Source: a virus. From it: a DNA stretch of 64,000 bases. How positions within the stretch are numbered: position 1 is the first letter of the stretch; every line of letters begins with the position of its first letter. The translations under genes were made by a program, and so were the position numbers. Positions 6,757 through 39,268 of the stretch are shown one piece after another. The notes beneath the pieces are model-generated. The model made no database searches. It was given only the letters and a program-made list of their open reading frames with translations, and was not told the origin of the DNA. The DNA lies in IMG/VR virus record IMGVR_UViG_3300045256_000753, positions 1 through 64,000 of that record. One strand, 5' to 3'.

Positions 6757-6772
6757 TCTTGGTGCTCGCGGA

Positions 6773-11914: not shown

Positions 11915-14900
11915 TCAGGTCACCCGGTTGGAAAGGGGAATCGAGTTCGGGTCGATGATCATCCGGATGTTGTCGTTGACGAGCGGGTGACCTTCGATGC
12001 GGTAGAGATCCGCCGCCGCATAGCCCTCGTTGGAACCGTTCGTTCCGATGAAGACGCTGCCGCTGTGCGCCGACGTGTCCTTGAGCATTTGGACAGTCGT
12101 GATGATGAGCATCATCAACTCGCCACCGGCCGAAACCTCCGTCGAGCCGACGTTCGTCACCGCGTTGCGAACGAGGTACGCGCGACCTTCGACGACGTTT
12201 GTGTGACCCGCCGCCGCTTGCACGCTCGGCTGCACGCACCCGACCTCACCGCCCGGGTGGGCGCCGTTGGCCGTGAACGCGGAGCCGCCGCGATTCGTGC
12301 GGAAGTTGACGAGTAGGGCGTAGTTCCCTTGCTCGCCATCGACGTGCACGATTGCATCGCCGGGGGCGCCGCTGGCGGTCGTCGAGGTGTCGAGGAGAAG
12401 CTCGTTCTGCTCGATCGACTTCGTGACCGCGAGGTTGCCCGCGATGCCGATCCCGTTTCCGTTGAGGAAGATGAGCGGGGCTCGCGAGCCTTCGCCCGAT
12501 CCGAGGAGGTTGCCTCGGAAGTCCTTGTCACGGAAGAGCGCACCCATGGGCAGCCGCTCCGTGCACCCGAGGTACTCCGTGCCGATCTCGTTGGCGTCGG
12601 CCGTTGCGAAGTTGCCCGGGAGGGTCTTCGGACGGGGAGCGACACCCGAAACGGGCGGGTACGCTGTCGGATCCTCGTAGCCAACATCTCGGAGGTCGAG
12701 TTGCTGCGTCGGATCCACATCGCCCGCGTAGCGGCCGGTGCCGAGCGTCGTCGCGAACCCAACCGAAGCGAGAACCTCCAGCACCTTCTGGTTCGGGCGC
12801 GTGAGGGCCGATTGGTTGAGGCTCGTCGAGGTGATCTGGAACGCCGTTCCGGAGAGCAGCGGACCAGGCTCGTACGGGATGTCGATGTAGTTCGTCTGGC
12901 TGCCCCACGCATCGCCCTGGTACGGCGTGCGCGAGTAGTTCACGACGATCTGATCGGAGTTCGTAGCCGGGCCCGGAACGACTCCGGTCGGGCCTGTGAT
13001 GACCACTCCGAGGTTGTTCGCACGAACGATGGTGTCTGCGGCCTGGTTGCGCATGAGCGTCGGCGACGTCGGGCGCGTGAGGACGAGACGGAACTCCTTC
13101 GTGATGTCGAAGCTTCCACGGTCGAAGCCGAAGATCGAAGCCTCGATGACGTAGTTGCCCGATGCGAAGGAAGCGATCGGGTTGACCGTCGAGCGCGTGA
13201 GGTCGATGGCTTTCGAGTTCAGGATGAACGTCGAGTCGCCGTCGTCATCGATCTCCACCCACATGACCGGACCATCGGCCGGATCCATGTTCTGCCGGAG
13301 GAGATTCTTCGCGCCGCCGCCCGTGGGGTTGCGGGTCGTGGCGTCGTAGGCCGAACCGTTCACCTTGTAGTCGTTGGCCTCGTACACTGCGAAGAGGCGA
13401 GCGACACCGTAGAACGGCGGAAGCTCCAGACCCGTTCGACCAAGGCCGCGCGAGTCCGTGAAGAACCGCATGCCGCCGTAGTTCTTGCCACCGAAGGTGA
13501 TCTCGGTGTTGTACGTGGCGGGGTTCGTGCCCGGGGGGTTGAAGTCGAGGGTCGTGAATGCGGCGTACGTGAGCGAACCGTTCGCGTACGGCACGTAGTT
13601 CTTGTCCCCATCGGCGAACGGCGGAGCGCCCTTCTTCGAGAGAGACATGTAGTTGACGCCCTCGGAGAAGACCGTGCTGTCGGCCGGCAGGATCGGAACG
13701 TTGAGTTCGCCCCATCCCGGAGAGAGATGGCGCGGCAACGTCACGTAGATGTTCTTCGTCGCGGCTTGCGCTTCCGTCGTGCCCGAGAAGAGTTGGAGCG
13801 GGTCGGTCGTCGTCCACTTGACCGTGGTGCCGTCCGGCTTGTTGAGCGGCATCAGGCCTTGTGCGTGCGCGATGCTGTAGGTGAGGTTCGTCGCCGGCGG
13901 AGCTGCGCCGCCGAAGATCGAGCGTTCGACGGTGAGCGTCGTCACGCCCACGGTGAGCACCGTGTATCGACCCGGAGCGAATCCGTTCGTGATGGTGAGA
14001 GCGTCACCCGGGGTCACGCCGGCCGCGCCGAAGTTGACCGTGGTGTCCGTGAACGTGGTCGAGCCGTTTGCTTGACCTTGGGTACCCGTCATCACGTTTG
14101 CGGTGCGCGGGTTCGCAGCGGTGCCGTCGATCGTACGGATCTCGGTCGGCCACGTCACGCGGCGGAACGGGGTGACGACGAGGGTCTTGCTGCCGAGGTC
14201 GGCAAACATCTCGGAGGTGGAGGGCACGAGACGCTTGTACGTCGTGCTTCGGAAGCGGCTCCAAAGGAGCGCCCAGTTAACGCGGGTCCCTTGGTTGTTC
14301 GAAGGAATGCCCGACGACTGGACGAGAAGCTCCGTCGAGGGGTTGATGAACGCGACCGAGTGGATCGAGTCCGGACGACGCGAGAGACCTCGGCCGGGCC
14401 CGTACATCACGTTGAGGCTGATGAAGAGCTGCTTCGACGTGACCGGGAAGTTCGCACCGAGGGTGATCGTGAGATCGTCGGTCGAAGCGGGGTTGGCCGG
14501 GGTGACCGTGTACATCGTGGACGGGAGCGGCTGGCTCTCGCCATCGAGACGGATCGTCACCGCGCCCGACACGCCATCGTTCAACCAGCGAACCTGATCG
14601 GCGTCGCCGCCCGGGAGACCCGACTTGAGCTGGGCCACCGGAACGACGATGACATCGGTCGGGCTGAATTGGTTGTTGCTCGAACGAACCGTGTGGTTCG
14701 CCGTGAGCTGTAGCGACCACGGGACGTTGATCGGCGCCGGAAGGGCGACTGAGTTCGCTTTCACGATGACATCGACGCTTTGGACGGTCGCTGCATCCGA
14801 GAAGGCGAGGCGAATGTTGTCCGGAGCATCGAGCTTCGTGACGCCGAGCGCGACGGAGCCTGCCGCGATCTTGTCCTGGTACGGAACGAACGGACCCTGG

Positions 14901-16258
14901 GGTCCCGCGCCCGTGCGCTTCCAGTTGGCGCGAAGCTGACCGCGAAGGACGCGATCGAGGTTCTCGCGGAGAAGCGCCGTGTAGTCGAACCCGTTGGGGT
15001 TGACGAGGTGACGAAGATCGAGGACGTCCGTCTTGGCGATCTGGTCGGAATACAGACCATCGGGGCGACCCGAGATGACCTTCACCGTTGCGCCCGCCTT
15101 GTGGAACTCGGCGCGGGTGCCGTTGGTTCCGCGAACGAGGCCCGTGATCATCGGAGGAACGCCGGTCGTGACGGCCGTGTACGTCATCAACTCGTCGCCG
15201 ATCTGAATGAGGACCGGGCTTGCGGGGCTGATGGGGAGCGGGATGTTCAACGCCGAGACGAGCTGTGCCGAAACCGCCACCGACGAAAGGTCGGCTGCGA
15301 GCGTCGCCGTCGTGGAGAACGTCTTGATGCCCGTGCGATCGACTGCCGTGGGGTTGCGGTTGAAGCCGCCGTTGAGGTTCTGGCTGGGATCGCCGTTCCA
15401 GGAGATGCTGTTTCGGCGGAAGACTGCCGCGATCGGGATCGCGTACGAGAACCCATCGACGGTGCCGAGCGCCGCTTGGGCGGTGTTCGAGCCGTCACCC
15501 GCGCGCCAAAGCCCGGCGTCGCCGAGAGCCTGTCGCATGTTGGTGAACGTGTAGCTCGTGGGGGCTCCCGCTGCGCCTTGCGCCTTGACGACGACCGGAT
15601 CGAAGCCGTCCGGGGCGCTCGTGAGGCCGACGAGACCCTTCACGACGCGAATGCGGTACTGGAGTTGGACACGCTCACTCGTCTCGAAGCCGAGAGCCGG
15701 ATCGATCAAGTCATCCGGAATGAACGTGTAGCCGCCTTCGACGTTGCCGTAGCGCCACACGGCGCTGGCTGCCGGCTTGTTGAGCGCGGACGGGTTCGGC
15801 GGGATGCGGGCAAGCCACGCCTCCAAGAACACGTAGTCGATGCGGAAGTCGCCCGAGTTCGCCGGAGGCGGGTCGAGCGCGATGACGTTGTATGTGTCCG
15901 CGTCGTCGGGGCTGCCGGGCGGGGTGCCCGTGCGCGTGCCAGTGACCGGAATCAGCCACCCGTTGACCACGGCCCACATGACAGCTTTTTGCTCACCCGT
16001 GCGCTGCGGGCCGAACTTCATCCAGTTCGACCAGATCGGGCTCGTGATGAAGTCCGCGCTCGGATTTGTCTCGTTGCCGAGAAAACCCGAGGGGCTTCCA
16101 CGAAGCACGATGCGACGGGAGAAATCCGTCGCCAGCTCTTGCAGGAGGTTGAACTCCGCATCCAACGGGGGCTTTCCCTGCTGGAGGATTGTGAGCGTGT
16201 ATGCTGTCCCGTTGGGGTCGAGGACGCGGGAGACGCCACTACCGAGATTCTCACCCAT
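11915..16258 (-). CDS. Large virion (baseplate/fibre-attachment) protein, 1447 aa; paralog of 25455..28055
   Basis: N-terminal QQGKPPLDAEFNLLQ motif typical of phage baseplate/fibre proteins; shares ETxxRVQxQYRxRV, GLWxAGDG, LGTVDGFxYAIP, VFRRN and RPDGL blocks with 25455..28055. Confidence 0.8.
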   Translation of the reverse strand: MGENLGSGVSRVLDPNGTAYTLTILQQGKPPLDAEFNLLQELATDFSRRIVLRGSPSGFLGNETNPSADFITSPIWSNWMKFGPQRTGEQKAVMWAVVNGWLIPVTGTRTGTPPGSPDDADTYNVIALDPPPANSGDFRIDYVFLEAWLARIPPNPSALNKPAASAVWRYGNVEGGYTFIPDDLIDPALGFETSERVQLQYRIRVVKGLVGLTSAPDGFDPVVVKAQGAAGAPTSYTFTNMRQALGDAGLWRAGDGSNTAQAALGTVDGFSYAIPIAAVFRRNSISWNGDPSQNLNGGFNRNPTAVDRTGIKTFSTTATLAADLSSVAVSAQLVSALNIPLPISPASPVLIQIGDELMTYTAVTTGVPPMITGLVRGTNGTRAEFHKAGATVKVISGRPDGLYSDQIAKTDVLDLRHLVNPNGFDYTALLRENLDRVLRGQLRANWKRTGAGPQGPFVPYQDKIAAGSVALGVTKLDAPDNIRLAFSDAATVQSVDVIVKANSVALPAPINVPWSLQLTANHTVRSSNNQFSPTDVIVVPVAQLKSGLPGGDADQVRWLNDGVSGAVTIRLDGESQPLPSTMYTVTPANPASTDDLTITLGANFPVTSKQLFISLNVMYGPGRGLSRRPDSIHSVAFINPSTELLVQSSGIPSNNQGTRVNWALLWSRFRSTTYKRLVPSTSEMFADLGSKTLVVTPFRRVTWPTEIRTIDGTAANPRTANVMTGTQGQANGSTTFTDTTVNFGAAGVTPGDALTITNGFAPGRYTVLTVGVTTLTVERSIFGGAAPPATNLTYSIAHAQGLMPLNKPDGTTVKWTTTDPLQLFSGTTEAQAATKNIYVTLPRHLSPGWGELNVPILPADSTVFSEGVNYMSLSKKGAPPFADGDKNYVPYANGSLTYAAFTTLDFNPPGTNPATYNTEITFGGKNYGGMRFFTDSRGLGRTGLELPPFYGVARLFAVYEANDYKVNGSAYDATTRNPTGGGAKNLLRQNMDPADGPVMWVEIDDDGDSTFILNSKAIDLTRSTVNPIASFASGNYVIEASIFGFDRGSFDITKEFRLVLTRPTSPTLMRNQAADTIVRANNLGVVITGPTGVVPGPATNSDQIVVNYSRTPYQGDAWGSQTNYIDIPYEPGPLLSGTAFQITSTSLNQSALTRPNQKVLEVLASVGFATTLGTGRYAGDVDPTQQLDLRDVGYEDPTAYPPVSGVAPRPKTLPGNFATADANEIGTEYLGCTERLPMGALFRDKDFRGNLLGSGEGSRAPLIFLNGNGIGIAGNLAVTKSIEQNELLLDTSTTASGAPGDAIVHVDGEQGNYALLVNFRTNRGGSAFTANGAHPGGEVGCVQPSVQAAAGHTNVVEGRAYLVRNAVTNVGSTEVSAGGELMMLIITTVQMLKDTSAHSGSVFIGTNGSNEGYAAADLYRIEGHPLVNDNIRMIIDPNSIPLSNRVT

Positions 16259-16326
16259 GTGATCTACATCCCTCGTCCTCGCCCGCTTATCAGTGTTTTA
16301 GAGAGGGTCGGGGTGTAAGAGCGCCC

Positions 16327-16647
16327 ATGGCGACGAGTAGCTGGTCCGAGGCAGGTCACCGGGTTTGCGCGGTTTTTTGTGGAACCGTGATCACCTTCAC
16401 GTGCGAGGCGCGGCTTCTCATCATTGAAAATGGCAGCACGCACTGGCAAACATGGCCGCTCTCGCAGTTGACGATCGGCGGCCCTTTCACGAATTCAGAG
16501 CGTCTGATTCGTACCTGGCTGGGTTTTTACCAGGACCCGCAGCTTCAGGATGCCGGCGCCGGCCTTCTCCAATTGATCCTGGGCAGCATCCCGGAAGCGC
16601 GCCCGCCGCAGCCTCCCCCGCCACCATCGAGCAAAAACCCGAACTAG
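16327..16647 (+). CDS. Hypothetical protein, accessory island
   Basis: ATG 16327 (MATSSWSEAGH...) 9 nt after a GGGTGTA motif; ends at TAG 16647. Confidence 0.6.
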   Translation: MATSSWSEAGHRVCAVFCGTVITFTCEARLLIIENGSTHWQTWPLSQLTIGGPFTNSERLIRTWLGFYQDPQLQDAGAGLLQLILGSIPEARPPQPPPPPSSKNPN

Positions 16648-16739
16648 GGGCCCCACTTCGACGGAAACGTCTTCGAAGCGATGATCGTGACCACGGTGAG
16701 GAGGCCCACCAATAGGATCGTGGGTAGCGTGCTCAACAT
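16644..16739 (-). CDS. 31-aa single-TM peptide (not in ORF track)
   Basis: Manual translation MLSTLPTILLVGLLTVVTIIASKTFPSKWGP*; stop shares CTAG with the convergent gene; GGGTGTA motif at 16783..16777 upstream. Confidence 0.5.
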   Translation of the reverse strand: MLSTLPTILLVGLLTVVTIIASKTFPSKWGP

Positions 16740-16880
16740 GGCCCAGACCCTTTCGCTTGCCGGTGACAGTCCCTAGTACACCCGGCAAACTGTAAGAAAA
16801 CCAAGCATGTAGGACATGTAGGTACAACTCATCTGTAGAAAAACGATTTGATCCGTGTCACCCTCGCCTGTATGGGGGAC

Positions 16881-18146
16881 ATGAAGACGCAAGTTTTTGC
16901 AATTTTCGCGTTCGTTTCGGTCGCCCTGACTGGCCTCACCGGCTGCGTGACCGACGTTCTTCCCTACCAGACGGCGCCGGATAGCGGCGACCCGACCAAG
17001 GATTCGGGCAATGCCCCGGATGTTGGGGAGGGTGGTATGGGAGCCGATTCCGCTGACGGTGGAATGGGGTCCGACACCGGCATGGGTCAGGACGGCTCGA
17101 TGGGCCAGGACGGGTCATCGACCGATGGCTCGATGGGCCAAGACAGTGGGACGGACTCCGGCATGGGTTGCGACGGTGGCAACCTGATGTGCGGTAACGT
17201 CTGCGTCGATTCGCTGACCGACAACAACAACTGCGGCGGTTGCGGGATCGCGTGCGGCGGTGGAGACACGTGCAACGCTGGCTACTGCACGCAAACGCTG
17301 GTCTTCGAGGCAACGAATCAGCTCGCGCTCTCGCTCAGCGGCAACAACGTCTACTTCTCGAACTCGGCGAACAAAGTCGAGAAGTGCGGAAAGAATGGAT
17401 GCGGCAATCAGCCGACCGTCCTCTCCACGAACCAGAACAACCCGACAAGCCTCGCGACGGATTCGACCGACGCCTACTGGACGAACTACCAAGGCGGATC
17501 GCTTTCGACTGTTCCTCTTGGGGGTGGCTCGACGACGAACCTGGCTACGAACCAGATGCAGCCGTACAGCGTCGCGGTCGATGCGAACGGCGTCTACCTG
17601 TACTGGGCAGAATCGATCTTCAACGGCACCGTCAAGAGGTGCTTGGCGGCCAACTGCGCGAACACGACGACGGCTCTGGCGACGGGCACTCAGGCGAGCG
17701 CCATCTCCGTCGATTCGACCAATGTTTACTGGTATGACTTCGCGGCGAAGCGGATTCTGAAATGCGCCGTTGGGGGTTGCAGCGGCAATCCAACCATCCT
17801 CGTCAACAATCAGAGTTCGACGAACTACACGTTCACGGACGGCTCGAATCTCTACTGGGCTTCGCTCACGTCGGTCTACAAGTGCGCGACTAACGGATGC
17901 GGCGGAAATCCGACCGTCTTGGCTTCGAATCAGAACGCCAACGCGATTGCTGTCGTCTCGGACGGCACGAACGCCTACTGGACCGACAAGGGTGGCACGG
18001 TGCAAAAGTGCGCCCTCAACAACTGCGCGAACACGATCACTCTGCTCGCGGTGAATCAGAACCAGCCGTACGCCATCGCGGTCGATTCGCAGCACGTCTT
18101 CTGGACGAACTACGCGGGCGGCCAGATCATGCGGGCCCCCAAATGA
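16881..18146 (+). CDS. Myxobacterial-style lipoprotein: D/G/S linker, Cys-rich repeat, beta-propeller
   Basis: Signal MKTQVFAIFAFVSVALTGLTG-C with lipobox; GMGQDGS repeats; CGNVCVDSLTDNNNCGGCGIACGGGDTCNAGYC; about seven xxDxxxxYW blades with KCxxxxC loops. Start ATG 16881. Confidence 0.85.
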   Translation: MKTQVFAIFAFVSVALTGLTGCVTDVLPYQTAPDSGDPTKDSGNAPDVGEGGMGADSADGGMGSDTGMGQDGSMGQDGSSTDGSMGQDSGTDSGMGCDGGNLMCGNVCVDSLTDNNNCGGCGIACGGGDTCNAGYCTQTLVFEATNQLALSLSGNNVYFSNSANKVEKCGKNGCGNQPTVLSTNQNNPTSLATDSTDAYWTNYQGGSLSTVPLGGGSTTNLATNQMQPYSVAVDANGVYLYWAESIFNGTVKRCLAANCANTTTALATGTQASAISVDSTNVYWYDFAAKRILKCAVGGCSGNPTILVNNQSSTNYTFTDGSNLYWASLTSVYKCATNGCGGNPTVLASNQNANAIAVVSDGTNAYWTDKGGTVQKCALNNCANTITLLAVNQNQPYAIAVDSQHVFWTNYAGGQIMRAPK

Positions 18147-18307
18147 ACCCGGCCCTCAAACGTGGACGCGTTGTCTACGATTCCTGGTGGCCCTGGCGAG
18201 TTGGCAGCATTACCAAGCGAAACAAGTCGTCTGTGTACGTGCAGTGGTCGGACGGCAAGACGTGGCGATACGACCGAGCCCACACCCAATTCCTGAGGAC
18301 CCGATGA
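18143..18307 (+). CDS. 54-aa basic, Trp-rich protein (SH3-like beta pattern)
   Basis: ATGA coupling at both ends; MNPALKRGRVVYDSWWPWRVGSITKRNKSSVYVQWSDGKTWRYDRAHTQFLRTR. Confidence 0.7.
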   Translation: MNPALKRGRVVYDSWWPWRVGSITKRNKSSVYVQWSDGKTWRYDRAHTQFLRTR

Positions 18308-18483
18308 TCGACAGACCTTACCGACCGACTCTTTTTGAAATCATCCTCGGGCGTCACGCCTACAGCATGGAGCCCGAGGAGGAGACGGCATGGTGTAGAG
18401 CGTTTCTCGTTATGGGTTTCGTCGCCGGCATCCTCTTCTGCGGACTCGTCAGCGACTTCATGGGACGGTTGCTCCATGGGTAA
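18304..18483 (+). CDS. 59-aa single-TM membrane protein
   Basis: ATGA coupling; MIDRPYRP...AFLVMGFVAGILFCGLV hydrophobic segment. Confidence 0.65.
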   Translation: MIDRPYRPTLFEIILGRHAYSMEPEEETAWCRAFLVMGFVAGILFCGLVSDFMGRLLHG

Positions 18484-18766
18484 GCTAAAATGGCGCACCC
18501 GAAGAGGAAACGCGATCTCGGCGCCTCTGTCGTACGCTGGAGACTTCGTGATCTCTCACCGCCACGAATGGCATACGGCTTCATACCGTCCTCCGGGCAA
18601 GCACGTCCACCTCGGGGTATTCCTCACGAAGAAAGCCGCACGTGAATTTTGCGAGTCTCTGGATGTCACCACGATAGAGATCGTCGGCGAAGGATTCACC
18701 CAGTTCCTTCGTGACCACCAGCGTCTCCACGCGGAGCGGGTCGCGGCCGGAATCTCGCCGCGTTGA
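18476..18766 (+). CDS. Hypothetical 96-aa protein
   Basis: ATG 18476 overlaps the previous stop; HLGVFLTKKAAREFCE resembles the LGxFxTxxxA motif common in small phage proteins. Confidence 0.65.
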   Translation: MGKLKWRTRRGNAISAPLSYAGDFVISHRHEWHTASYRPPGKHVHLGVFLTKKAAREFCESLDVTTIEIVGEGFTQFLRDHQRLHAERVAAGISPR

Positions 18767-18770
18767 CCGT

Positions 18771-18836
18771 TATACGTAGAGACGAACGAACCTACGTATA
18801 GTTTGCCGATCTGCGTCGATTTGCTCAGATCGGCAA
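18771..18836. terminator. Two adjacent hairpins between convergent genes (candidate bidirectional terminator)
   Basis: TATACGTAG/CTACGTATA (18771-18779, 18792-18800) and TTGCCGATCTG/CAGATCGGCAA (18803-18813, 18826-18836). No long U-tract. Confidence 0.6.
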
Positions 18837-18843
18837 GGACCGT

Positions 18844-19470
18844 TCAGTAGATCACAGCCCACGAACCGAGCCAGAGGCGGTTCGCAGAGGCGTTCGTGAG
18901 CCGGATGATGAAGTTCGTTCCCTGGCCGAGCCCAGGGATGTTCGTGACACCCCCATCGAGCGCGCTGTTGAACGTCACGCCCCCATCACAAGAGACGGAG
19001 CATGTAATGTTCAAGGGAGAGGACGCGACCTCGGCATACGTGCGCTGGTAACGATCCGTTTTGGCATCGGAGGCCGTGTACTGGAAGGTCTCCCACGTCA
19101 CGATGACGGCTGGCGGGGCGCCCGGGGTCAGACCGATGACGTTCGATTGCAGAACCCCGCCCGGGAAGAGCGAGATCGAGCCGCGTTCACCGAGCGTGAT
19201 ACCCGAGGAGTTCGCCGCGTCGATGCCCGAGGCGTTCACGAGATCGTCGAACGTGATTCGTGTGAAGCCAGCGTAGAAGGCAAGCAGCCCCGTGTATTTC
19301 TGCGTGATGAGGTTCGAGAAGCTTGAGGGACGAACGACCTGGACGCCATCCGGCACGCGAACGACGAAGCAACCATTCGTGAGCGACTGGAAGTTCGTCG
19401 GGTCGCGAACATCGATGAGGGCGGAGTTCGCCAAGATCGCGTTGTGCAGGTCAACGAGGTAGTGAGCCAT
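18844..19470 (-). CDS. Putative virion protein downstream of tailspike
   Basis: 208 aa, beta-rich, GGAG upstream, co-oriented with the tail genes. Confidence 0.7.
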   Translation of the reverse strand: MAHYLVDLHNAILANSALIDVRDPTNFQSLTNGCFVVRVPDGVQVVRPSSFSNLITQKYTGLLAFYAGFTRITFDDLVNASGIDAANSSGITLGERGSISLFPGGVLQSNVIGLTPGAPPAVIVTWETFQYTASDAKTDRYQRTYAEVASSPLNITCSVSCDGGVTFNSALDGGVTNIPGLGQGTNFIIRLTNASANRLWLGSWAVIY

Positions 19471-19481
19471 TTACATCTCCA

Positions 19482-22400
19482 TCATGTCGCGAAGATCGCC
19501 GTGTTGAACAGCATCGTCCCACCGTTCGCGTAGAGACGAGTGTCGGCGCCAGCGCCAACCGTCTGCCAACCACGCAAGTTGTAGGTAAGGTTCGCGTTCG
19601 GCGAGACGAACGCGCCGGTTCCCGACACTTGCATTTGACCGAGCGTGCCGAGAAGATCCGTGTTGTTGTTCATGGCCACCGACACGATTCCGCCGACGCG
19701 GCTGATCGTGTGGCAGTCGATCTTGATTTGCACGTTGGCGGCTGCACCGTTGTTGCCGGCTGCCGTGTTGTTGAGCAACCAGACACATCCGAGCCAAGAC
19801 TCGCCACCGGCATTGTCCGTCTCGACAAGGATGCCTTCCTGCGTGCAAGACCGAATGACGTTCTGCTCGATGGTGATGCCGTCCTCATCGATGATGTGCC
19901 CGGACACCCAGATGCCGCGCCCCAAGCCTCCGGAACCGAGGGAGTAGAAACGGCAGCGGCGAATGTAGAGGCCGGAGATGTTGAGCGACGTTGATGCGAG
20001 GATTCCGCCACGCAAAGACGAACCGGCCAAGTCTTCGATCTCGACACCGATGATGTTGCCCGACACGGCGTTGAGAAACAGGGCGTAATAACCGCCGACT
20101 GCGCCACCGCCGTTGAGGAAGCCGTGGACGCGCCCGCCAGAGAAGACGACATGGCGGTTGTCGTTCGACTCCCAGTTGAGCATGCAGATGATGCTGTCCA
20201 CGGCCCACGCGCCGCCGCCCGCCGTCTGACCATCCATTTGGATGTTGCGGATACGTCCACCGGAGTGAAATCCGTTGCCGTACCCCGAGAAGAGGAGGCG
20301 GTGGATCGGTGTGGAGCCCGTTCCGCCGTCCGAAAACGACGAGAGCTGGAGGTCATCGACATCGATGTCTTGCGTGCGAATCGAGATGTCGCCTGCGGTG
20401 GAGAGCTGCTTGAAGCCCGTGCCCTTGATCTTCTTTGCGGTCACCTTGTCGGCAAGGATGTTGACCGTTCCGTAGAAGAAGACGGACGGGGGTGCGCCGC
20501 CACCCGTGTACCAGAACGCGGTGTCGTCCGGGATCAAACAACCGGGCTGTGCGGCAGTCGGCACCATGGTGAACACGACATCATTCAACTCGAAGTGCTT
20601 GGCGCCCTGAGCGACGTTGAACGGCGTGAGCTGGTTCGGCGGAATCGGGTCACCGAGCTGGCAGATGATGCGCGAGTTTCGGATGACGAAGTGTTGGACT
20701 TGGAGGTACGGCCCCACGCCCGCCCCGTTCACCCCGTTGCCCGAAGGCGTGAGGTGGAGGATGACGTTGACGAAGCCGGAGGGCACGTTCGGATTCGGCG
20801 TCGAGATGATGCAGTTCTCGAAGACGACATCCTGAATCGTTGCGCCGTTGCCCGTTCGAGCGTCCTGGGCGTTCGGGTCGAGATCCACGATGCCCGTGTT
20901 CTGCGCGAGCACGCCGTTCGTGAAACCACCGGGGGTTGCCGTGGTGGTCTGGTTGAGAACGAACTTGCTGCGGCTGACGTGGATGCCTTCGATGGTTCCG
21001 ATTGCGCCAGCCAGAGCGCGGATTCGAATCGCAGGGACCGTGAAGCCCATCGAGAACGAGCACTCGTCCACGAAGACGCGCTTGCAGTCGGTCGTTCCAC
21101 CGCCCTCGATCGTGATTGCCGCGTCGTTTGCCGTGCCATCGAAGAGGCATCGGGTGAAGACGCTCGGGGCGTCGTCTCCGGAAAGCGACGACAGGATCAC
21201 GTTGTCGAACGAGCAGTCTTGGGCGATCACTCGGCCGCTGTCCGATGCGCGAACCGAGTAGACGCCGGCGGCGCCGTTCGAGATGACGTGAATGCCCTTG
21301 AGATACAGCGTGTTGCCGCTGTGGACGTACATCGAGTCGATGGCCGCAGCCGGAGCGGAGAGAGTCGAGCCCGAGCCACCCTGCCCGGAGCCGTAGCCCT
21401 CGATCGTGAGGAAGCCGGGCCCGAACGCGCCGAGGTTGATCGTCGCGTTCATCGAGTGGAAGCCGCGCTTGAGGAAGATCGTGGCCGAGTTGATGTTCAG
21501 GCCTGCCGATTGGATGCAGGCCATCGCTGCGTTGATGGCGTTCGTTCCGTTGAAGTCGCCGAACGAGTTCGTTCCGTCGCCGATCGAGCAGTAGAACCGA
21601 CCGTTGAGGTTTTTGAGAAGCTGCTCGGCCACCGGGACAACCGATCCGCCCGTGGACATCGTTCCGGTACCGCCCGTGCACCCCGTGAAGGTCGTGCTCG
21701 TCGTGCCCGTGTAGGTCACGAACTGCGGGCCCGCCGACGTGTTGACGATGAGCGATCCCGTGGCTGGGAACTTGGCCGTGCTCGCGACGTTGATGGTACC
21801 AGTCGGGAGAGAGACGCCGTTCGAGCCGGCTGCGATCGTTGTCGTGAACTGACCCCAGCCCTTGTCGAAGATGCGAACGATCTTCGCGCCATCCGCTGTC
21901 GTCGTGGACGAGAAGCGCATGAACTTGCCGCCGTTGTTGCCGGCGTTCGCAACCGTCTGCGCGTCGTAGAAGGCGAGGATGTCATCGGAGCCGATCGACG
22001 AGCCGTTCTGCGTCGTCGGGCTGAAGGTACCCGTGCTCCATCCGATGCCATCGAAGTAGAGCTTCGAGCCTGCGGATGCCACGATGTCCGTGCCGCGCGT
22101 CGCGTAGAGCAAACGTGCGGAGCCCTTGGTCAGGGTCGAATCGACGGCCCAGAAAACCGCGTAGAGATTGAGACGGCCCGTGACGCCGTTGACGCCACCG
22201 ACAACCTTGATGTTGCCGCCGATCTTCGGGGCACACGAGAAGCGAATGACGCCGGCCTTGTAGTCGATCGTCAGGCGTTGATCGCCGGGGGCGATGGCCG
22301 GATCGATGACCGGGTTGAGCGACGTGATCGGCTGCGTGAGATCCGGTCCGGTTCCGAGACCGTTGTCCGGATAGAGGACGACGCGGTACCCGAGCTTGTC

Positions 22401-23195
22401 GAGCGAGGTCCGGGGCGCCGGGGCATCGAATACCGAGTCGGCACGATCCACGGTCGAATCGAGGCCGTAGGCGGACGGAACGAGGCTCTTGACGCGATCG
22501 GCGTTGATCTGATCGACGGTCGGGGCGACGTTGCTGTGGAGCGTCGAGCCCGGAATGACCGCGAGGAATGTTTGCTCCTGGCCAGTCGGACCGGAGCCCG
22601 GGACCGCGAAGAGCTGCACCGCCAGGGGACGGACGATGACGTACGGGTAGAGATCCGCCGCAACGTTGAATTGGTTTGTCGGTGCGGAGACCCTGTGGAT
22701 GTTGGTGCACGTGAGGGTCGTCGCGCCAACGACCGAGATCGTGCCGACGAGGTTGGCGTTCGCGCTGCTCGTCGGGCCGTTCCGAACGAGGAGGAGGTCA
22801 CCTGCTTGGACGCCAGCAACGATGAAGCTTGCCGTCGAGTCGGTGAACTGGTTGACGGCAGTGCCGGCACCCTGAGTTCCGCTCACGATGTGCGTCGGGC
22901 CGTACCACTTGGCCGTATCGGCCGTGAGGTCCGAGGTCTGCGTCAACGTGCCGATGTACTTGCCCGGCTGGGTCGGAGGCGTCTGGCTGTAGACGTCATC
23001 GAGGAGGACGTTTGGTCCAGTGAGATAGGGCTCGGCATTGATGTCGCCCTTTCCGACGACACCTTCCGGAGGCAAAGCGGAATCGCCAACCGTGAGAGCC
23101 TTGCTGCCCGCAAAGAAGTCCGCTTTGCGGAGCTGTTCCAGCTCCAGACGGGTGAGGTTCGAGTACGAACCAGTCGGCGTGAAAGACGCTGCCAT
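19482..23195 (-). CDS. Tailspike / receptor-binding protein with C-terminal parallel beta-helix
   Basis: SIGDGTNSFGDFNGTNAINAA...ATIFLKRG is the usual beta-helix cap, followed by right-handed beta-helix repeats (VVFENCII, FVIRNSRI, YIRRCRF, ITIEQNVI). Confidence 0.8.
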   Translation of the reverse strand: MAASFTPTGSYSNLTRLELEQLRKADFFAGSKALTVGDSALPPEGVVGKGDINAEPYLTGPNVLLDDVYSQTPPTQPGKYIGTLTQTSDLTADTAKWYGPTHIVSGTQGAGTAVNQFTDSTASFIVAGVQAGDLLLVRNGPTSSANANLVGTISVVGATTLTCTNIHRVSAPTNQFNVAADLYPYVIVRPLAVQLFAVPGSGPTGQEQTFLAVIPGSTLHSNVAPTVDQINADRVKSLVPSAYGLDSTVDRADSVFDAPAPRTSLDKLGYRVVLYPDNGLGTGPDLTQPITSLNPVIDPAIAPGDQRLTIDYKAGVIRFSCAPKIGGNIKVVGGVNGVTGRLNLYAVFWAVDSTLTKGSARLLYATRGTDIVASAGSKLYFDGIGWSTGTFSPTTQNGSSIGSDDILAFYDAQTVANAGNNGGKFMRFSSTTTADGAKIVRIFDKGWGQFTTTIAAGSNGVSLPTGTINVASTAKFPATGSLIVNTSAGPQFVTYTGTTSTTFTGCTGGTGTMSTGGSVVPVAEQLLKNLNGRFYCSIGDGTNSFGDFNGTNAINAAMACIQSAGLNINSATIFLKRGFHSMNATINLGAFGPGFLTIEGYGSGQGGSGSTLSAPAAAIDSMYVHSGNTLYLKGIHVISNGAAGVYSVRASDSGRVIAQDCSFDNVILSSLSGDDAPSVFTRCLFDGTANDAAITIEGGGTTDCKRVFVDECSFSMGFTVPAIRIRALAGAIGTIEGIHVSRSKFVLNQTTTATPGGFTNGVLAQNTGIVDLDPNAQDARTGNGATIQDVVFENCIISTPNPNVPSGFVNVILHLTPSGNGVNGAGVGPYLQVQHFVIRNSRIICQLGDPIPPNQLTPFNVAQGAKHFELNDVVFTMVPTAAQPGCLIPDDTAFWYTGGGAPPSVFFYGTVNILADKVTAKKIKGTGFKQLSTAGDISIRTQDIDVDDLQLSSFSDGGTGSTPIHRLLFSGYGNGFHSGGRIRNIQMDGQTAGGGAWAVDSIICMLNWESNDNRHVVFSGGRVHGFLNGGGAVGGYYALFLNAVSGNIIGVEIEDLAGSSLRGGILASTSLNISGLYIRRCRFYSLGSGGLGRGIWVSGHIIDEDGITIEQNVIRSCTQEGILVETDNAGGESWLGCVWLLNNTAAGNNGAAANVQIKIDCHTISRVGGIVSVAMNNNTDLLGTLGQMQVSGTGAFVSPNANLTYNLRGWQTVGAGADTRLYANGGTMLFNTAIFAT

Positions 23196-23250
23196 GTGAT
23201 CTTAATCCCTGTCTGACTGCCTCGATAAAAGCCCTACGGTTGCGACCCCA

Positions 23251-25455
23251 TCACGGCGGGAGCCACTCCAGCTCGTCGATGGTGAGCGCCGTGCCCGCGC
23301 CATTGATGAGCGACACACGCACGAAGAGGAGGAAGTTGCCCGAACCGTTGTTCGAAGTGAATGCCGTCGTGTTGAACGTGACGAACACGTCCGGACCCAC
23401 CGTCGTGATGCCCGTGGCGCAACCATAGAAGTCGGTTGTCGCGATGCCGGGGTCACCGTACGCACGGCCGAGGTCGAGCCAACCGGTTCCGCCACCGCCC
23501 GGGACCTTGAGCTGGATGATGGCACCCCCAACGAGGTGGCCCGTGGTTTCCGTGCCGTTGTATGCGGCGTTCGTCTGGATCGCCGCGTAGGCGAGACCAC
23601 GAATGCGAAGCTTGCCGGTGTTGCGCGGAACGCCCGTGTCGAAGGCACGCTGGTAGCGCCGGAGGTGGTTGGCACCGTCGCCGGCCGGGAAGCCCGAGTA
23701 GTCCGGCTGGCCCACCGGACGGTATGCCGCCGCGCCGTAGTTCACTTGGGGGTAAGCGAGAACGTTTCCGACCTCTTGGAGGTCCGGTCCCGTCACCAAC
23801 AAGGCGGCGTTCGAGGCGTAGATGTTGCCGCCACCCGGAACGATCGGAACGGCAGCCGAAGTGGTCGGATCGAAGCTGAGCGCGTAGCGGTACTTCTCGT
23901 CCACGAACGGTTCGAGCGTGGTCGTCGAAGCCGTGCCGCCACCCGACTGCGGGTAGGAGTTGAAGAGGTAGCGCGTCGTGTCCAAGAACTGGACGGCCGC
24001 GTTGAAGGGATCCTTCAGATCGGCACGGAGAAGACCGTAGCCGTTCGCGGGGCTTGCGGGGCCGGCACCCGGGATCGCCAACGCAGCGTTGATGTACTGC
24101 GCGATGTCCGCTGCCTGCGGCGAGTTGATGTTGCTGTAGTTGCCGACGATCGTGGCCTTCCGCAGGTCGGAGTACGGAACCAGCGTGGTCGTGCCGCCGA
24201 ACGCGTTGAAGTTCAGGACCATCGGATCGTTGGCCGATTGGAACTGGTTCGGAACGAGCGGCGGGTTGGCGACCGATCCCGTATCGAAGCTGTTGCTGAA
24301 CAGGTCGCTCGCGCGGATGTCCACGTTCCAGTGAAGCGGCGTGCCGCCGTTGTCGTAGAACTGGACGCCCGAGAGGAAGACCGTCGTCGGAACTGCAACC
24401 TGTGCAGAGGAGAACAACGTCCCCGCCGGCGACGTGCCGGATCCAGCATCGCGGAAGACGTGGTGACGGTTGACGTTGTAGACCGGCGTCGTGTTGTCGT
24501 CGAAGTTGCCTCCGGCCGGAACCGCCGAGTAGCACTTGCTGGCCACGAGGTTGCCGATCGTGAGGTTCGCCGGCTGGATCGAGGCGAGCGTCGTCGCGTA
24601 CGTCTCTTTCCAGTGGACGACGAGGTAGTTCTGCGCGTCGCCGGCCGCGAGGGCCTGCGTGAGGAGCGAGAACACGGCGAGCTGGTAGCGGTAGAAGTTG
24701 ATCGAGAACGGTCCGTACGGTGTGCCGGGGTACGCCGTGTAGTTCGACAGATACGGAAGACGGAACGTCAGACCGAACTGATCGAGGCCGACGCCGGAGG
24801 CGACGTAGTTCGCCTGCTGGACTTTGCGGTTCGCTTCAACGAAGTTGGCACCAGGGATGCCGCCCGGAGGTGGGTTGCTTCCGAGGTAGAGCGCAGCGAC
24901 GAGGGTCGTGGCACCGGCGTTGAAGAAGTTGCCGTCCGTGTTCTTGTAGAACGCGACCACGCCGCGATCGGCCGGGAAGAGAAGGCCGCTCATCGCGAAG
25001 TTCGCGGTGCCGTTCGGAACGAGGAAGTGGCTGAATTCGACGTTCGCGCCGTTGGGGTAGCCACCCGTTCGAGACGTGCCGGACCCGATACCGAAGGCAT
25101 CGAGCAACCCCCAAGACGGGATGCCCGAGCTGATACCCTCGGGGAGGTTGAAGCCGATCGAATTCGGACGAACGGGGATGAGGTCCTTGAACTCGTCGAT
25201 GAAGTCGAGGACGCTCTCGCCATCGATCACGCCGCCCACGCTTGTGAGGAGCGCCTCTCCGGTCGGTGGGTAGAACGGGTTGATGCCGATGGCGCTCGCC
25301 ATGTGTGCGTCGATCGGATCGGTGATGTGCGCTTGCAAGGCGGCGTTCGAGCCCCCGCCAGGCGGGAAGAGAAGAGCGCCGGCCGGAACGACACCGGCAG
25401 AGAGCCGGCCCGGTCCCGGGTTGACAACGACGGTGGGGTCTTTGGTGGACGGCAT
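23251..25455 (-). CDS. Virion structural protein, 734 aa
   Basis: LQAHITDPIDAHMASAI His-type trimer motif seen in fibres; TGATG coupling with the upstream gene. Confidence 0.7.
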   Translation of the reverse strand: MPSTKDPTVVVNPGPGRLSAGVVPAGALLFPPGGGSNAALQAHITDPIDAHMASAIGINPFYPPTGEALLTSVGGVIDGESVLDFIDEFKDLIPVRPNSIGFNLPEGISSGIPSWGLLDAFGIGSGTSRTGGYPNGANVEFSHFLVPNGTANFAMSGLLFPADRGVVAFYKNTDGNFFNAGATTLVAALYLGSNPPPGGIPGANFVEANRKVQQANYVASGVGLDQFGLTFRLPYLSNYTAYPGTPYGPFSINFYRYQLAVFSLLTQALAAGDAQNYLVVHWKETYATTLASIQPANLTIGNLVASKCYSAVPAGGNFDDNTTPVYNVNRHHVFRDAGSGTSPAGTLFSSAQVAVPTTVFLSGVQFYDNGGTPLHWNVDIRASDLFSNSFDTGSVANPPLVPNQFQSANDPMVLNFNAFGGTTTLVPYSDLRKATIVGNYSNINSPQAADIAQYINAALAIPGAGPASPANGYGLLRADLKDPFNAAVQFLDTTRYLFNSYPQSGGGTASTTTLEPFVDEKYRYALSFDPTTSAAVPIVPGGGNIYASNAALLVTGPDLQEVGNVLAYPQVNYGAAAYRPVGQPDYSGFPAGDGANHLRRYQRAFDTGVPRNTGKLRIRGLAYAAIQTNAAYNGTETTGHLVGGAIIQLKVPGGGGTGWLDLGRAYGDPGIATTDFYGCATGITTVGPDVFVTFNTTAFTSNNGSGNFLLFVRVSLINGAGTALTIDELEWLPP

Positions 25456-28055
25456 CAGACAGCCCTCTTGTCGAGCAGGTTGCCCTTGATGCGGAACACG
25501 GCAGCGGTCGTGGTGTTCTGCGTCAAGTTCGCATTGAAGAACACGCCATCGGTTTCATCGAAGAGCGCGTATCGGATGAGAAGAACGAGCACGAGCTGAC
25601 CGCGATGCCCGAGCGTCGAGTCCGCTGCAAGCTCGCAAATCATCGGGAGCACGTCTTTGTGGCGTTTCGGATCCGAGAGGTCTTGGGCGTAGGCGTTGGG
25701 AACGTATCCGCCCGGCACGGTCTTGAAGTAGCTTCGACCTTCGACGTCGATGTCACCGAGGCCGCGTTGGAAGGTCAGACCCTCCGGGGCTGCGACCATC
25801 GGAATGAACGTCGGGAGACGGAGGAAACCGGTTGTCGCGTTGAACTCTGCGACGGAAACATCTCCGCGCGCCGAGAGTTCGGCTTCGCCCGTATACGTGC
25901 CCGCCGAGGTCGGATAAATTCCGCCCGTCTGCACGTAGGCCATGGGGAACGGATAGCCCTCGTCTTGCGAGCCGCTGCCCGTCGTGATCACGAACATGGC
26001 CGGGCCCACGTACTTCGGGATGACCTGGAGGCTCGTGCCGAGCATCGATCCACGTGCAGCCTGCGGGGCGCGGGCCGCGTAGTAGATCGTCATCTGCTCG
26101 CCGTTTTGCGGCATGGGACGAATGCCCGTGTACGTGATCGTCAGCGTGTCACCGGGGTTCGTGAAGTCCGCCGCGTTGGTGAACGTGACGATGCGTCCGG
26201 TTGCGTCGATGACTGTGCCGCCGACGATGGGCACCGCGTTCTTGAGAACCGACACGATCGTTTGGGCGCGCTCCGGCAAACGGAACGTCGAATCGTTGTT
26301 GACGACCGTATCGGCCGCCTGGATGATCGTGATGTTCGCCGTCTGGTATTCGAGCTGCACTTCACGGTGCGTCGAGTCGATCGCCTGGTTCTGGAAGGAA
26401 CCGAACGAGACAGGGGCGCCGACCGGCATCTGACCGGGGTTGTTGATGAAGAAGCTGTTCGAGCCGAAGGTGTTGGTTGCCGTCTTCGACATGCCCACGC
26501 CGGTCGGGTACTCGATGAGAAGATCGACGTAGAGGGTCTCGTTCGTCAAAGCGAGCGGCGCCACCGTTCCGACTTTCAGCGTCAGAGAGACCGTGGGTAC
26601 GGCACCGAGATTCGTCACGCTGGCGATGTAAGGCATCGCGTTGGTTGTCTTCTTGCCGGCCGCACCCAACCACCAAGCATCCACGATGTCGTGGAGAACG
26701 ACGGTCGCGGGGGCAAAGCTTGCCCAGTTGAATGCGAGGTACGGGTAGATGGGAAGCGCGGTCGGATCGATGGTTCGGGTTGACCCGTTCGCCCATCCGC
26801 CGCCCGGCGCCGGAACAGCGACGGTGACGACTTCCATGATGGCGCGACCCGAGAAGCGTCGCCGCACGGCATCGAACTCGCCGAGGAACTGGCCCACGCC
26901 CGTGGTTCCGGTCGTGATGCCATCACCGCCGTGCGCGTTCGACAAGCCGATCTCGTCTGCGCAGAAGACCGTCGCACCACGGTAACCGCCACCGAACGGA
27001 GAGGTGTCGGTCCAGTCCGTGTAGAGCTGGTTGTCGAAGAGGTACTGGACGCTCTTGTCGAGAATCTCGGTGTACGACCAGCCTGTTGTCGAGACACCCA
27101 GACGAAGATCGATGATGTCTCGTGCAACGAAGACGTCCGCGAAGAGGCCATCCGGACGATCCGAAGGTCCCGGGGTCGCAACGCCACCGTTCTGATTGAG
27201 GCGGCGATCGAAGGCCGTCGTGTTGCGGCGGAAGACCGCAAGGAGCGGGATGGCGTACATGAAGCCGTCCACCGTCCCGAGAGCGTTCGCCGGGTTTCCG
27301 TCGCCGGCTACCCAGAGACCAGGATCGCCGTTCGACGACTGGTTGGTGTACGTGAAGATCGTCGCGTTGCCATCGGGGGTCGCGGCGTTCGGCGGAACCG
27401 ATCGCGCAACGACCGTGGGATCTTCCAACCCGTAGGGATAGGCGAAAACGTCCACGTTCTGAATGACGCGAAGGCGGTACTGGATCTGGACGCGTTTCGT
27501 TGTCTCGGCGCCGACGTTCACATCCTTGAGGTCGTCGGCAAAGTTGAGGACGAGATCGTTGGCCGGATCCGTCTTGACGTTGCCTTGCTGCCAGATGCGG
27601 CCACCGGCGCTCTTGCCGTCCGTGCTCGGCGCAGCGGAGATGAGCTTTCGCCAGACTTCGAGGACGACGAGATCATTGCGTCGCGCGCCTTGTCCGACCG
27701 GACCGGCGCCGAGATCGAGAATGTTCGAACCGGTGTTGTTCGTCTGCTGAATCTTGAGGAGCCAGCCGTTGACGTGGGCAACCAGTCCGTTCGGGACGAT
27801 GAGCTGGTTCGAGATTGCGCTTGCAGTGAAGATCGCCGCAGCCGGGTCCGAGGAGGTGAGGAAGTCGTCCGAGAGCCACCCGCTCGGGATCTGTCGCTTG
27901 AGGCCGGTCTCTGCCTGACCCCCATCGATGTCCTGTCCAAGGTTCAGCTCCTTGTCGAGGACGGGCTTTCCCGCTTGGAAGACTGCTGTCTCCCAATTAC
28001 GCCCCGTGGGGTCGAGGTACCCAGAGACGGCCGGTCCGAAATTCTTCCCACTCAT
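25455..28055 (-). CDS. Virion (baseplate/fibre-attachment) protein, 866 aa; paralog of 11915..16258
   Basis: FQAGKPVLDKELNLGQ N-terminal motif and shared blocks with 11915..16258. Confidence 0.8.
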   Translation of the reverse strand: MSGKNFGPAVSGYLDPTGRNWETAVFQAGKPVLDKELNLGQDIDGGQAETGLKRQIPSGWLSDDFLTSSDPAAAIFTASAISNQLIVPNGLVAHVNGWLLKIQQTNNTGSNILDLGAGPVGQGARRNDLVVLEVWRKLISAAPSTDGKSAGGRIWQQGNVKTDPANDLVLNFADDLKDVNVGAETTKRVQIQYRLRVIQNVDVFAYPYGLEDPTVVARSVPPNAATPDGNATIFTYTNQSSNGDPGLWVAGDGNPANALGTVDGFMYAIPLLAVFRRNTTAFDRRLNQNGGVATPGPSDRPDGLFADVFVARDIIDLRLGVSTTGWSYTEILDKSVQYLFDNQLYTDWTDTSPFGGGYRGATVFCADEIGLSNAHGGDGITTGTTGVGQFLGEFDAVRRRFSGRAIMEVVTVAVPAPGGGWANGSTRTIDPTALPIYPYLAFNWASFAPATVVLHDIVDAWWLGAAGKKTTNAMPYIASVTNLGAVPTVSLTLKVGTVAPLALTNETLYVDLLIEYPTGVGMSKTATNTFGSNSFFINNPGQMPVGAPVSFGSFQNQAIDSTHREVQLEYQTANITIIQAADTVVNNDSTFRLPERAQTIVSVLKNAVPIVGGTVIDATGRIVTFTNAADFTNPGDTLTITYTGIRPMPQNGEQMTIYYAARAPQAARGSMLGTSLQVIPKYVGPAMFVITTGSGSQDEGYPFPMAYVQTGGIYPTSAGTYTGEAELSARGDVSVAEFNATTGFLRLPTFIPMVAAPEGLTFQRGLGDIDVEGRSYFKTVPGGYVPNAYAQDLSDPKRHKDVLPMICELAADSTLGHRGQLVLVLLIRYALFDETDGVFFNANLTQNTTTAAVFRIKGNLLDKRAV

Positions 28056-39265: not shown

Positions 39266-39268
39266 CAA

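Follow-up and report, generated by a model that had tools for sequence, protein, structure and literature searches.

Why does the tail-fiber region of a phage carry, on the strand opposite to its neighbors, a gene for a lipoprotein built like those of myxobacteria? We addressed this question in the first 64 kb of the 101.6-kb IMG/VR virus record IMGVR_UViG_3300045256_000753 (estimated completeness 21%); this whole stretch of 64,000 nucleotides is hereafter called the window. The window represents part of a jumbo phage genome, and its gene at 16881..18146 (+ strand) is predicted, from the sequence and a structural model, to encode an exported, lipid-anchored binding protein that combines a lipobox, a long linker, a Stig1-like disulfide knot, and a seven-bladed propeller. 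What is new here is a phage lipoprotein that adjoins a receptor-type gene and is built on a large propeller of host type, together with the finding of other members of the broad family at the hot spot of related jumbo phages.

Anatomy of the encoded protein

The reading frame yields 421 aa from the ATG at 16881. The start codon is ambiguous (TTG at 16848, ATG at 16872, or ATG at 16881), and all three starts lead to the same lipobox cysteine. The N-terminus reads MKTQVFAIFAFVSVALTGLTG|C; the signal peptide with its lipobox LTG-C (16881..16946, +), as read from the sequence, puts Cys22 at position +1. Lys2, an 11-residue hydrophobic core, and L-T-G-C are those of a lipoprotein signal, the G-C of the lipobox is aligned in most homologs, and lipidation is predicted. 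The mature N-terminus, CVTDVLPY, has neither Lys nor Asp at +2 and no Ala at +7. In Myxococcus xanthus, Lys at +2 directs lipoproteins to the inner membrane and Ala at +7 to the matrix, the Escherichia coli counterpart being Asp at +2 (PMC3222651). Because these known sorting signals are absent, the default prediction is an outer-membrane lipoprotein whose disulfide-stabilized binding domain is held on a long tether.

The tether is a disordered G/D/S/M-rich linker (residues 23-95; 16947..17165, +), with AlphaFold2 (AF2) confidence scores (pLDDT) of 36-45 and low-complexity repeats, including some of the GMGQDGS type. Outer-membrane lipoproteins of the LpoA/LpoB type have long disordered linkers. 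By an analogy of architecture only, the anchor and a linker of ~70 residues could likewise let the globular domain cross the periplasm; the phage lipoprotein is unrelated to LpoA/LpoB in sequence and fold.

Behind the linker lies an eight-cysteine module resembling Stig1 and MXAN_6577-like proteins (residues 96-137; 17166..17291, +). It spans C97 to C136, includes CGNVCVDSLTDNNNCGGCGIAC, and contains the motif C104-GNV-C108-VDSLTDNNN-C118-GG-C121-GIA-C125. Both family matches are below cut-off: Pfam Stig1 (PF04885) matches at E 6e-4 and 20.6 bits against a curated cut-off of 24.1, and NCBIfam NF041328 (MXAN_6577-like) at E 1.6e-8 and 34.6 bits against a cut-off of 100. Since the cysteine pattern aligns with that of PF04885-bearing homologs and the scores stay below these thresholds, we call the module Stig1-like, not a certified member.

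The remainder of the protein (residues 138-421; 17292..18143, +) is modeled with pLDDT >90 as a seven-bladed beta-propeller of 28 strands and seven YW/YF repeats, in which 5 of the 7 blades (1, 3, 4, 5, and 6) have C-x4-C loops. Its best fold matches are propellers of the YWTD (LDL-receptor class B) and NHL classes: Foldseek returns those of LRP6 and LDLR, the NHL-derived Pizza6, and also virginiamycin B lyase, with E down to 7e-15, and some homologs carry Pfam Ldl_recept_b. Unlike YWTD propellers, the phage protein has seven blades rather than six, bacterial C-x4-C loops, and no match to PF00058.

The frame at 16881-18146, its LTG-C lipobox, a GMGQDGS-type linker, and a disulfide-looped propeller had all been described by the first-pass annotation, and all are present in the sequence or the AF2 model. 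The cysteine repeat that it listed is a motif that occurs once only in the phage protein; some homologs have 2-3 such modules. The protein had also been called rich in Asn and Cys. Here, the Asn content of the propeller (12.3%) is the highest among 103 family propellers (median 5.1%), with Gly almost the lowest, whereas Cys, at 3.5%, is at a usual level for the family.

A very large family of myxobacterial lipoproteins

The reading frame is a real gene, not a chance frame in high-GC DNA, given its 206 homologs in 90% clusters (best E 1e-71), the 18,705 cluster representatives returned by an exhaustive search at E<=1e-3, and a GC3 of 79%, similar to that of the neighboring phage genes. Family members are similar over their full length (E 1e-71 to 1e-40, query cover 65-90%, identity 34-42%), and the invariant (6/6) and nearly invariant (24/24) family columns are all preserved in the phage copy. 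The Stig1-propeller lipoproteins of Polyangiaceae have the same domain order as the phage protein, i.e. a lipobox, a low-complexity linker, one or more CGxxCxDxxxDxxNCGxCGxxC modules, and YW-repeat blades with C-x4-C loops. Members of this unnamed, Polyangiaceae-type family carry Pfam Stig1, DUF5050, Ldl_recept_b, and PF24684, and the family is related to the NCBIfam MXAN_6577-like proteins.

The family is myxobacterial and consists of stand-alone lipoproteins; it is very large, and expanded in Polyangiaceae. About 90% of the best 80 loci in species-representative genomes are from Myxococcota (Polyangiaceae, Sorangium, Labilithrix, "Myxococcales", and metagenome-assembled genomes [MAGs] labeled "delta proteobacterium"). 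Outside this phylum, the same 80 include an Acidobacteriaceae MAG (L014), Nitrospinota (L051 and L054), Micrarchaeota (L067 and L084), and Nitrospirota (L072). A genome survey with one query and a single threshold (E<=1e-15) finds the family in 60 of 121 Polyangiaceae, most of them with multiple copies, vs. 10 of 301 Myxococcota drawn evenly, and in 0 of 300 Acidobacteriota beyond the one found earlier. The first-pass statement that this architecture is common in Polyangiaceae thus holds. One Polyangiaceae MAG has ~30 matching stretches at E<=1e-10, and probably holds 20 or more family genes. Myxococcota is also the commonest phylum of every cluster returned by an embedding-based atlas search, a lead only, as its scores are <0.9. 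At the DNA level, the Stig1-like module matches at 72-97% identity when searched against 201 Polyangiaceae genomes, and in 167 of these most matches fall in this stretch.

The neighbors of 57 cellular homologs show no conserved context, and no genes of this phage were found beside them. The cellular copies sit among housekeeping genes; unlike them, the phage copy lies in a tail-fiber module and has the codon composition of the phage, its GC and GC3 being equal to those of the flanking phage genes.

Quick trees made with FastTree and IQ-TREE are star-like, and the phage copy forms a long, compositionally odd branch with no supported sister. Within the myxobacterial radiation cluster the members from Nitrospinota, Nitrospirota, and one from Micrarchaeota, along with the copy of a viral contig (L005); these nonmyxobacterial members could reflect transfer or misbinning. 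A best identity of ~42%, an unresolved tree, and a composition matched to the phage point to old and repeated exchange with a lineage of Polyangiaceae type, not to a recent capture. The first-pass annotation had proposed capture from the host lineage and expected the tree to nest the phage copy in Myxococcota. The link to the family is strong and the nearest homologs are indeed myxobacterial; capture from the host is not demonstrated by identities of <=42%, a star-like tree, and phage-like GC and GC3, and nesting is compatible with the trees rather than demonstrated by them.

A hot spot beside the fiber genes of related phages

The lipoprotein gene is part of a 2.5-kb inserted block (16305..18843) located between the stop of a 208-aa conserved fiber-module gene (18844..19470, -) and a point ~45 nt upstream of the start of a 1447-aa tail-fiber protein (11915..16258, -). 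The block is convergent with the former gene, homologs of which are found in 13 of 20 related loci (32-60% identical), and divergent from the latter. The 20 viral loci comprise 18 contigs of 37 to 536 kb fetched by the fiber N-terminus and two found through the lipoprotein family. Comparing them shows that the site beside the fiber genes is a hot spot, either empty or loaded with other exported proteins and lipoproteins, including distant relatives of the window's family.

Specifically, the closest relative (L088), whose fiber protein is 76% identical to that of the window, has no insert, and neither do L096/L100, L097, L099, and L102; in these loci just 24-72 bp separate the 208-aa and fiber genes. 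The ~45 nt upstream of the fiber ATG are conserved between the window and its insert-free relatives, and block 16305-18843 has no DNA match in any of the related loci. Other loci are loaded. At the junction occupied by the block in the window, L090 encodes an opposite-strand lipoprotein of 783 aa, and L089 and L091 have orthologous lipoproteins of 822 and 774 aa, also on the opposite strand and immediately upstream of the fiber gene. In L092, a lipoprotein lies downstream of the fiber gene. L003 and L004, with a baseplate protein 64% identical to that of the window, encode a 462-aa opposite-strand lipoprotein propeller on the far side of the 208-aa gene. L105 encodes a signal-peptide-bearing TPR protein in addition to a small lipoprotein, and secreted proteins are encoded on the same strand as the fibers in L093, L094, and L098.

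The long phage lipoproteins (L089, L090, and L091) are likewise made up of a linker, cysteine repeats, and a propeller, and their similarity to the window's protein is weak, with detectable pairwise matches at 25-27% identity. They are 30-33% identical to myxobacterial proteins. The window's protein and that of L003 are 29% identical to each other, and each is 39-42% identical to myxobacterial proteins. Each phage copy is thus nearer to myxobacterial proteins than to other phage copies (25-29%), which argues for repeated exchange rather than a single capture. From these sequences, the phage clade appears to have acquired or replaced such genes more than once.

Variation at the locus extends to a 1237-aa fiber- or spike-type protein (19482..23195, -). 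Compared with its L088 counterpart (L088:5581-9276), the first 350 aa are 59% identical and the distal ~880 essentially unrelated, which looks like a swap of the receptor-binding part. Two differences thus set L088 apart from the window, the missing block and the divergent distal part of this protein. The block is also contained in a soil metagenome variant ~95% identical to the window (range ~89-98% over 15500-19500). In this variant, divergence is ~11% for the 208-aa gene vs. ~5% for the lipoprotein gene, a weak argument for retention of the latter. One soil contig has a 2-nt insertion at 17695/17696, and possibly belongs to another organism. The stretch 15500-19500 is near-complete in public runs labeled as hot-spring or microbial-mat metagenome, a possible source of the window.

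Several related loci have further genes near the hot spot. Small proteins that start with ...GRHLLVEY(I/A)GC are encoded between the 208-aa and hot-spot genes (L093:6534-7031, L094:7066-7491, and L092:7277-7663); this motif may be that of S-adenosylmethionine decarboxylase. Upstream of the opposite-strand lipoprotein of L091 is a run of seven same-strand open reading frames (ORFs; L091:227-7024) that, by the look of their N-termini, encode radical-SAM, methyltransferase, epimerase, and glycosyltransferase enzymes; the run could be a glycan-modification cassette beside the fiber genes.

Organization of the inserted block

The first-pass annotation had placed the lipoprotein gene in an inverted island, on the strand opposite to all flanking genes. 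It does run opposite to the flanking tail genes, but it is not alone, as the block holds four further plus-strand ORFs and one tiny minus-strand ORF. Upstream of the lipoprotein gene are a 106-aa ORF (16327..16647, +), the first of the block, and a 31-aa hydrophobic peptide ORF (16644..16739, -). Downstream, a 54-aa ORF (18143..18307, +) overlaps the lipoprotein stop through an ATGA, a 59-aa ORF with one hydrophobic segment (18304..18483, +) overlaps the 54-aa ORF in the same manner, and a 96-aa ORF (18476..18766, +), the last of the plus-strand run, overlaps the 59-aa ORF by 8 nt. None of the small ORFs of the block has a match in sequence searches of Pfam and the PDB, and an AP2-like identity considered for the 96-aa ORF found no support in these searches.

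Two adjacent hairpins (18771..18837; fold energy -30.4 kcal/mol, z -2.6) lie where the block and the 208-aa gene converge, and are a candidate bidirectional terminator. Scanning for sigma-70 promoters and terminators revealed nothing useful at the lipoprotein gene. Enrichment of SGGTGTA, a candidate early motif, is not significant (10 matches vs. 4.7 expected, a number reached in 4 of 100 shuffles). For the lipoprotein itself, tblastn against phage and plasmid collections gave no match, and a PHROG search gave one weak match only, to a family of unknown function. A spanin role was rejected, the protein being far too large.

The phage and its probable host

The window is recognized as phage DNA by its Baseplate_J domain, its helicases, and its matches to huge phages. 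The Baseplate_J protein (35810-39268) has its best database matches in an uncultured 485-kb phage (34%), Tunturiibacter phage Tunturi_5, and Bacillus phage G, and the window also encodes helicases of the DnaB and SNF2 types, plus a series of very large minus-strand proteins. The 1447-aa protein matches, at its N-terminus, the annotated tail fiber of Tunturi_5, and its ~300 N-terminal aa are common to an 866-aa protein (25455-28055, -; 38% identity), the two being probably paralogous anchors that fix different fibers to the baseplate. The baseplate protein, the Tunturi_5 fiber match, and the N-terminal domain common to the 866-aa protein together establish that the lipoprotein gene is phage-borne and lies among tail genes, as stated at first pass. 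PHROGs and Pfam searches on the large flanking proteins returned only Baseplate_J and a weak tail-tube initiator match.

Two further observations concern these structural genes. The 1447-aa and 1237-aa genes have a near-identical stretch, AGGGAT.TAGATCACATGG, at their starts (16240-16262 and 23180-23200, minus strand), and a related version is kept upstream of the L088 fiber gene. In two related phage records, a baseplate J homolog 64% identical to that of the window (G002:C1:143847-147332 and G003:C1:68917-72402; L087 and L086) crosses one in-frame TGA, which could be an assembly error, a sign of two genes, or recoding.

On indirect evidence, a myxobacterial host of Polyangia type is, in our judgment, somewhat more likely than not. 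The gene of the DnaB-type helicase (region 4412-6792, -) has 66% nucleotide identity to a stretch in a Polyangiaceae MAG in a DNA search, and the DnaB relative in this MAG has beside it a gene related to the loader-like neighbor of the phage gene (35% aa identity). A second, more distant DnaB relative (69% nucleotide identity over 258 nt) lies within a 3.2-Mb Polyangiaceae contig, in an island of low GC. Both stretches have a GC content below that of their surroundings, and look like mobile elements or prophage remnants. At the protein level, DnaB relatives 57, 44, and 36% identical are present in 3 of 201 Polyangiaceae genomes (the first two at G656:C84:18093-19538 and G284:C2:1944975-1946333), and none were found in 301 Acidobacteriota at the same threshold. 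Moreover, runs that contain the window also contain several other contigs with Stig1-type repeat DNA. A DNA search of 20 kb against the 201 Polyangiaceae genomes gave no spacer-like match; with just two candidates scored in each genome, it falls short of a genuine CRISPR test. The short matches listed from this search (90-97%) are mostly to the Stig1 coding stretch or to recurrent coding stretches near 810-1130.

Receptor masking and its alternatives

A small phage lipoprotein with a known role offers the nearest comparison. In the T5 record (NC_005859), back-to-back promoters drive llp and, in the other direction, oad, the gene of the receptor-binding protein; four tiny ORFs with one transmembrane segment each follow llp. 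T5 Llp blocks the receptor FhuA; once processed, it is a protein of ~60 aa that targets a TonB-dependent transporter from the periplasmic face (PMC9586334). BF23 Llp, although unrelated to it in sequence, acts likewise on BtuB, so that each Llp forms a module with its own receptor-binding protein (PMC4728585). The window's lipoprotein gene likewise adjoins and diverges from a fiber or receptor-binding gene and is followed by small, membrane-type ORFs; it is also, like these llp genes, variable or absent among relatives. This layout and the recurrence of opposite-strand lipoproteins beside fiber genes make receptor masking or superinfection exclusion the best single guess for the role of the protein, a guess that we regard as possible but short of probable. 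Its size, its fold, and its dispensability in close relatives also leave room for other envelope roles or a passenger gene.

Under receptor masking, the phage lineage would have repeatedly exchanged such genes with myxobacteria of Polyangia type, its probable hosts, and the window's copy would have been resident long enough to acquire phage composition. The block would be transcribed independently, divergent from the adjoining fiber gene, and the protein would be made in the infected cell, exported by Sec, and then lipidated. Without known retention signals, the lipoprotein would be sent to the outer membrane, where the tethered propeller may bind an envelope component used in adsorption and so mask the receptor. 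Masking would exclude superinfecting phage and spare progeny from sticking to debris, a function like that of T5 Llp. Taken whole, i.e. an exported propeller lipoprotein that is exchanged with the host lineage and masks a receptor after export to the outer membrane, this is the best explanation that we can offer, and we favor it tentatively.

Several findings weigh against this explanation. Close relatives without any such gene show that it is dispensable, and the 1447-aa fiber protein is conserved with or without the lipoprotein. A receptor-matching partner, if there is any, must therefore be the 1237-aa protein, for which there is a single comparison only. At ~400 aa with a linker, cysteine knot, and propeller, the protein is unlike Llp and Cor, which have ~60-80 aa and act at the periplasmic face, and it has no sequence similarity to these proteins of T5, BF23, and T1/phi80. 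The cellular family has neither a known function nor a conserved gene neighborhood. PADLOC found no defense or exclusion family in the block, and no RNA runs are listed with the region. As for the host, the baseplate protein was not found in the 201 Polyangiaceae genomes, and the GC of related phages spans 44 to 60%.

The protein may instead act in the envelope in a manner unrelated to adsorption, its propeller binding peptidoglycan, exopolysaccharide, or a host surface protein. Such a factor would either mimic a host lipoprotein or change the behavior of the envelope during infection, in motility, cell-cell contact, outer-membrane exchange, predation, or the timing of lysis. A lipobox, a long linker, and a globular binder suit many envelope roles, the family is one of paralog-rich surface or periplasmic lipoproteins of the host with no conserved neighborhood, and the fold neighbors of the propeller are ligand-binding YWTD/NHL modules. 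However, neither the recurrence of such genes beside fiber genes, on the opposite strand and in several phages, nor the T5-like layout is explained by a role of this kind, which we consider somewhat unlikely. That the gene brings the phage no benefit, being a host lipoprotein gene that illegitimate recombination left in a permissive intergenic site and that is yet to be lost, would fit the absence of the block from the closest relatives, a site that tolerates diverse inserts, and tiny companion ORFs with no family match. Yet the ORF is intact with every invariant and nearly invariant family position kept, its codon composition is fully phage-like, and an Asn-rich drift implies long residence. 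A second population, with a different habitat label, moreover retains the block at ~95% identity, and genes of the same type recur in other members of the clade; a mere passenger is therefore improbable.

We regard as most improbable of these a component of the virion or of its assembly, i.e. a fiber-associated receptor-binding or chaperone protein in which the lipobox is incidental. The position of the gene within the fiber module, the occurrence of propellers in phage receptor-binding proteins, and the proteins with secretion signals encoded on the fiber strand at the hot spot of L093, L094, and L098 would agree with it. But the lipoprotein signal peptide is canonical and common to most cellular homologs and the other phage copies, and eight plus ten cysteines imply an oxidizing compartment for folding, whereas virions assemble in the cytoplasm. 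In addition, the gene is encoded on the other strand and converges on the 208-aa gene at the candidate terminator, and it is missing from close relatives.

Implications for jumbo phages and myxobacterial lipoproteins

The receptor-masking explanation can be extended in two directions. In its weaker form, with no transfer between cells, large host-derived propeller lipoproteins would be a new class of fiber-linked exclusion proteins in huge phages of myxobacteria, which we judge unlikely on present evidence. A bolder form builds on a first-pass suggestion: as myxobacteria exchange lipoproteins of the outer membrane by means of TraAB, a masking lipoprotein from the host repertoire would be passed in this way to uninfected kin, spreading exclusion or a manipulation by the phage. 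TraAB exists in Sorangium (PMC6372800). We hold this extension to be very improbable, and TraAB-mediated spread of a phage lipoprotein to be pure speculation.

If the proposed exchange and masking are true, they would bear on phages and hosts alike. Myxobacteria of Polyangia type would be the probable host lineage of an uncultured clade of jumbo phages, with contigs of 100-540 kb; we know of no described jumbo phage of such myxobacteria. These phages would keep a fiber-side site that is repeatedly loaded with exported proteins from host lipoprotein families, and the window's protein would be a concrete candidate for receptor masking, built very differently from the small Llp and Cor proteins. 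On the host side, a very large family of myxobacterial lipoproteins, with thousands of clusters and no known role, would gain its first clue to function.

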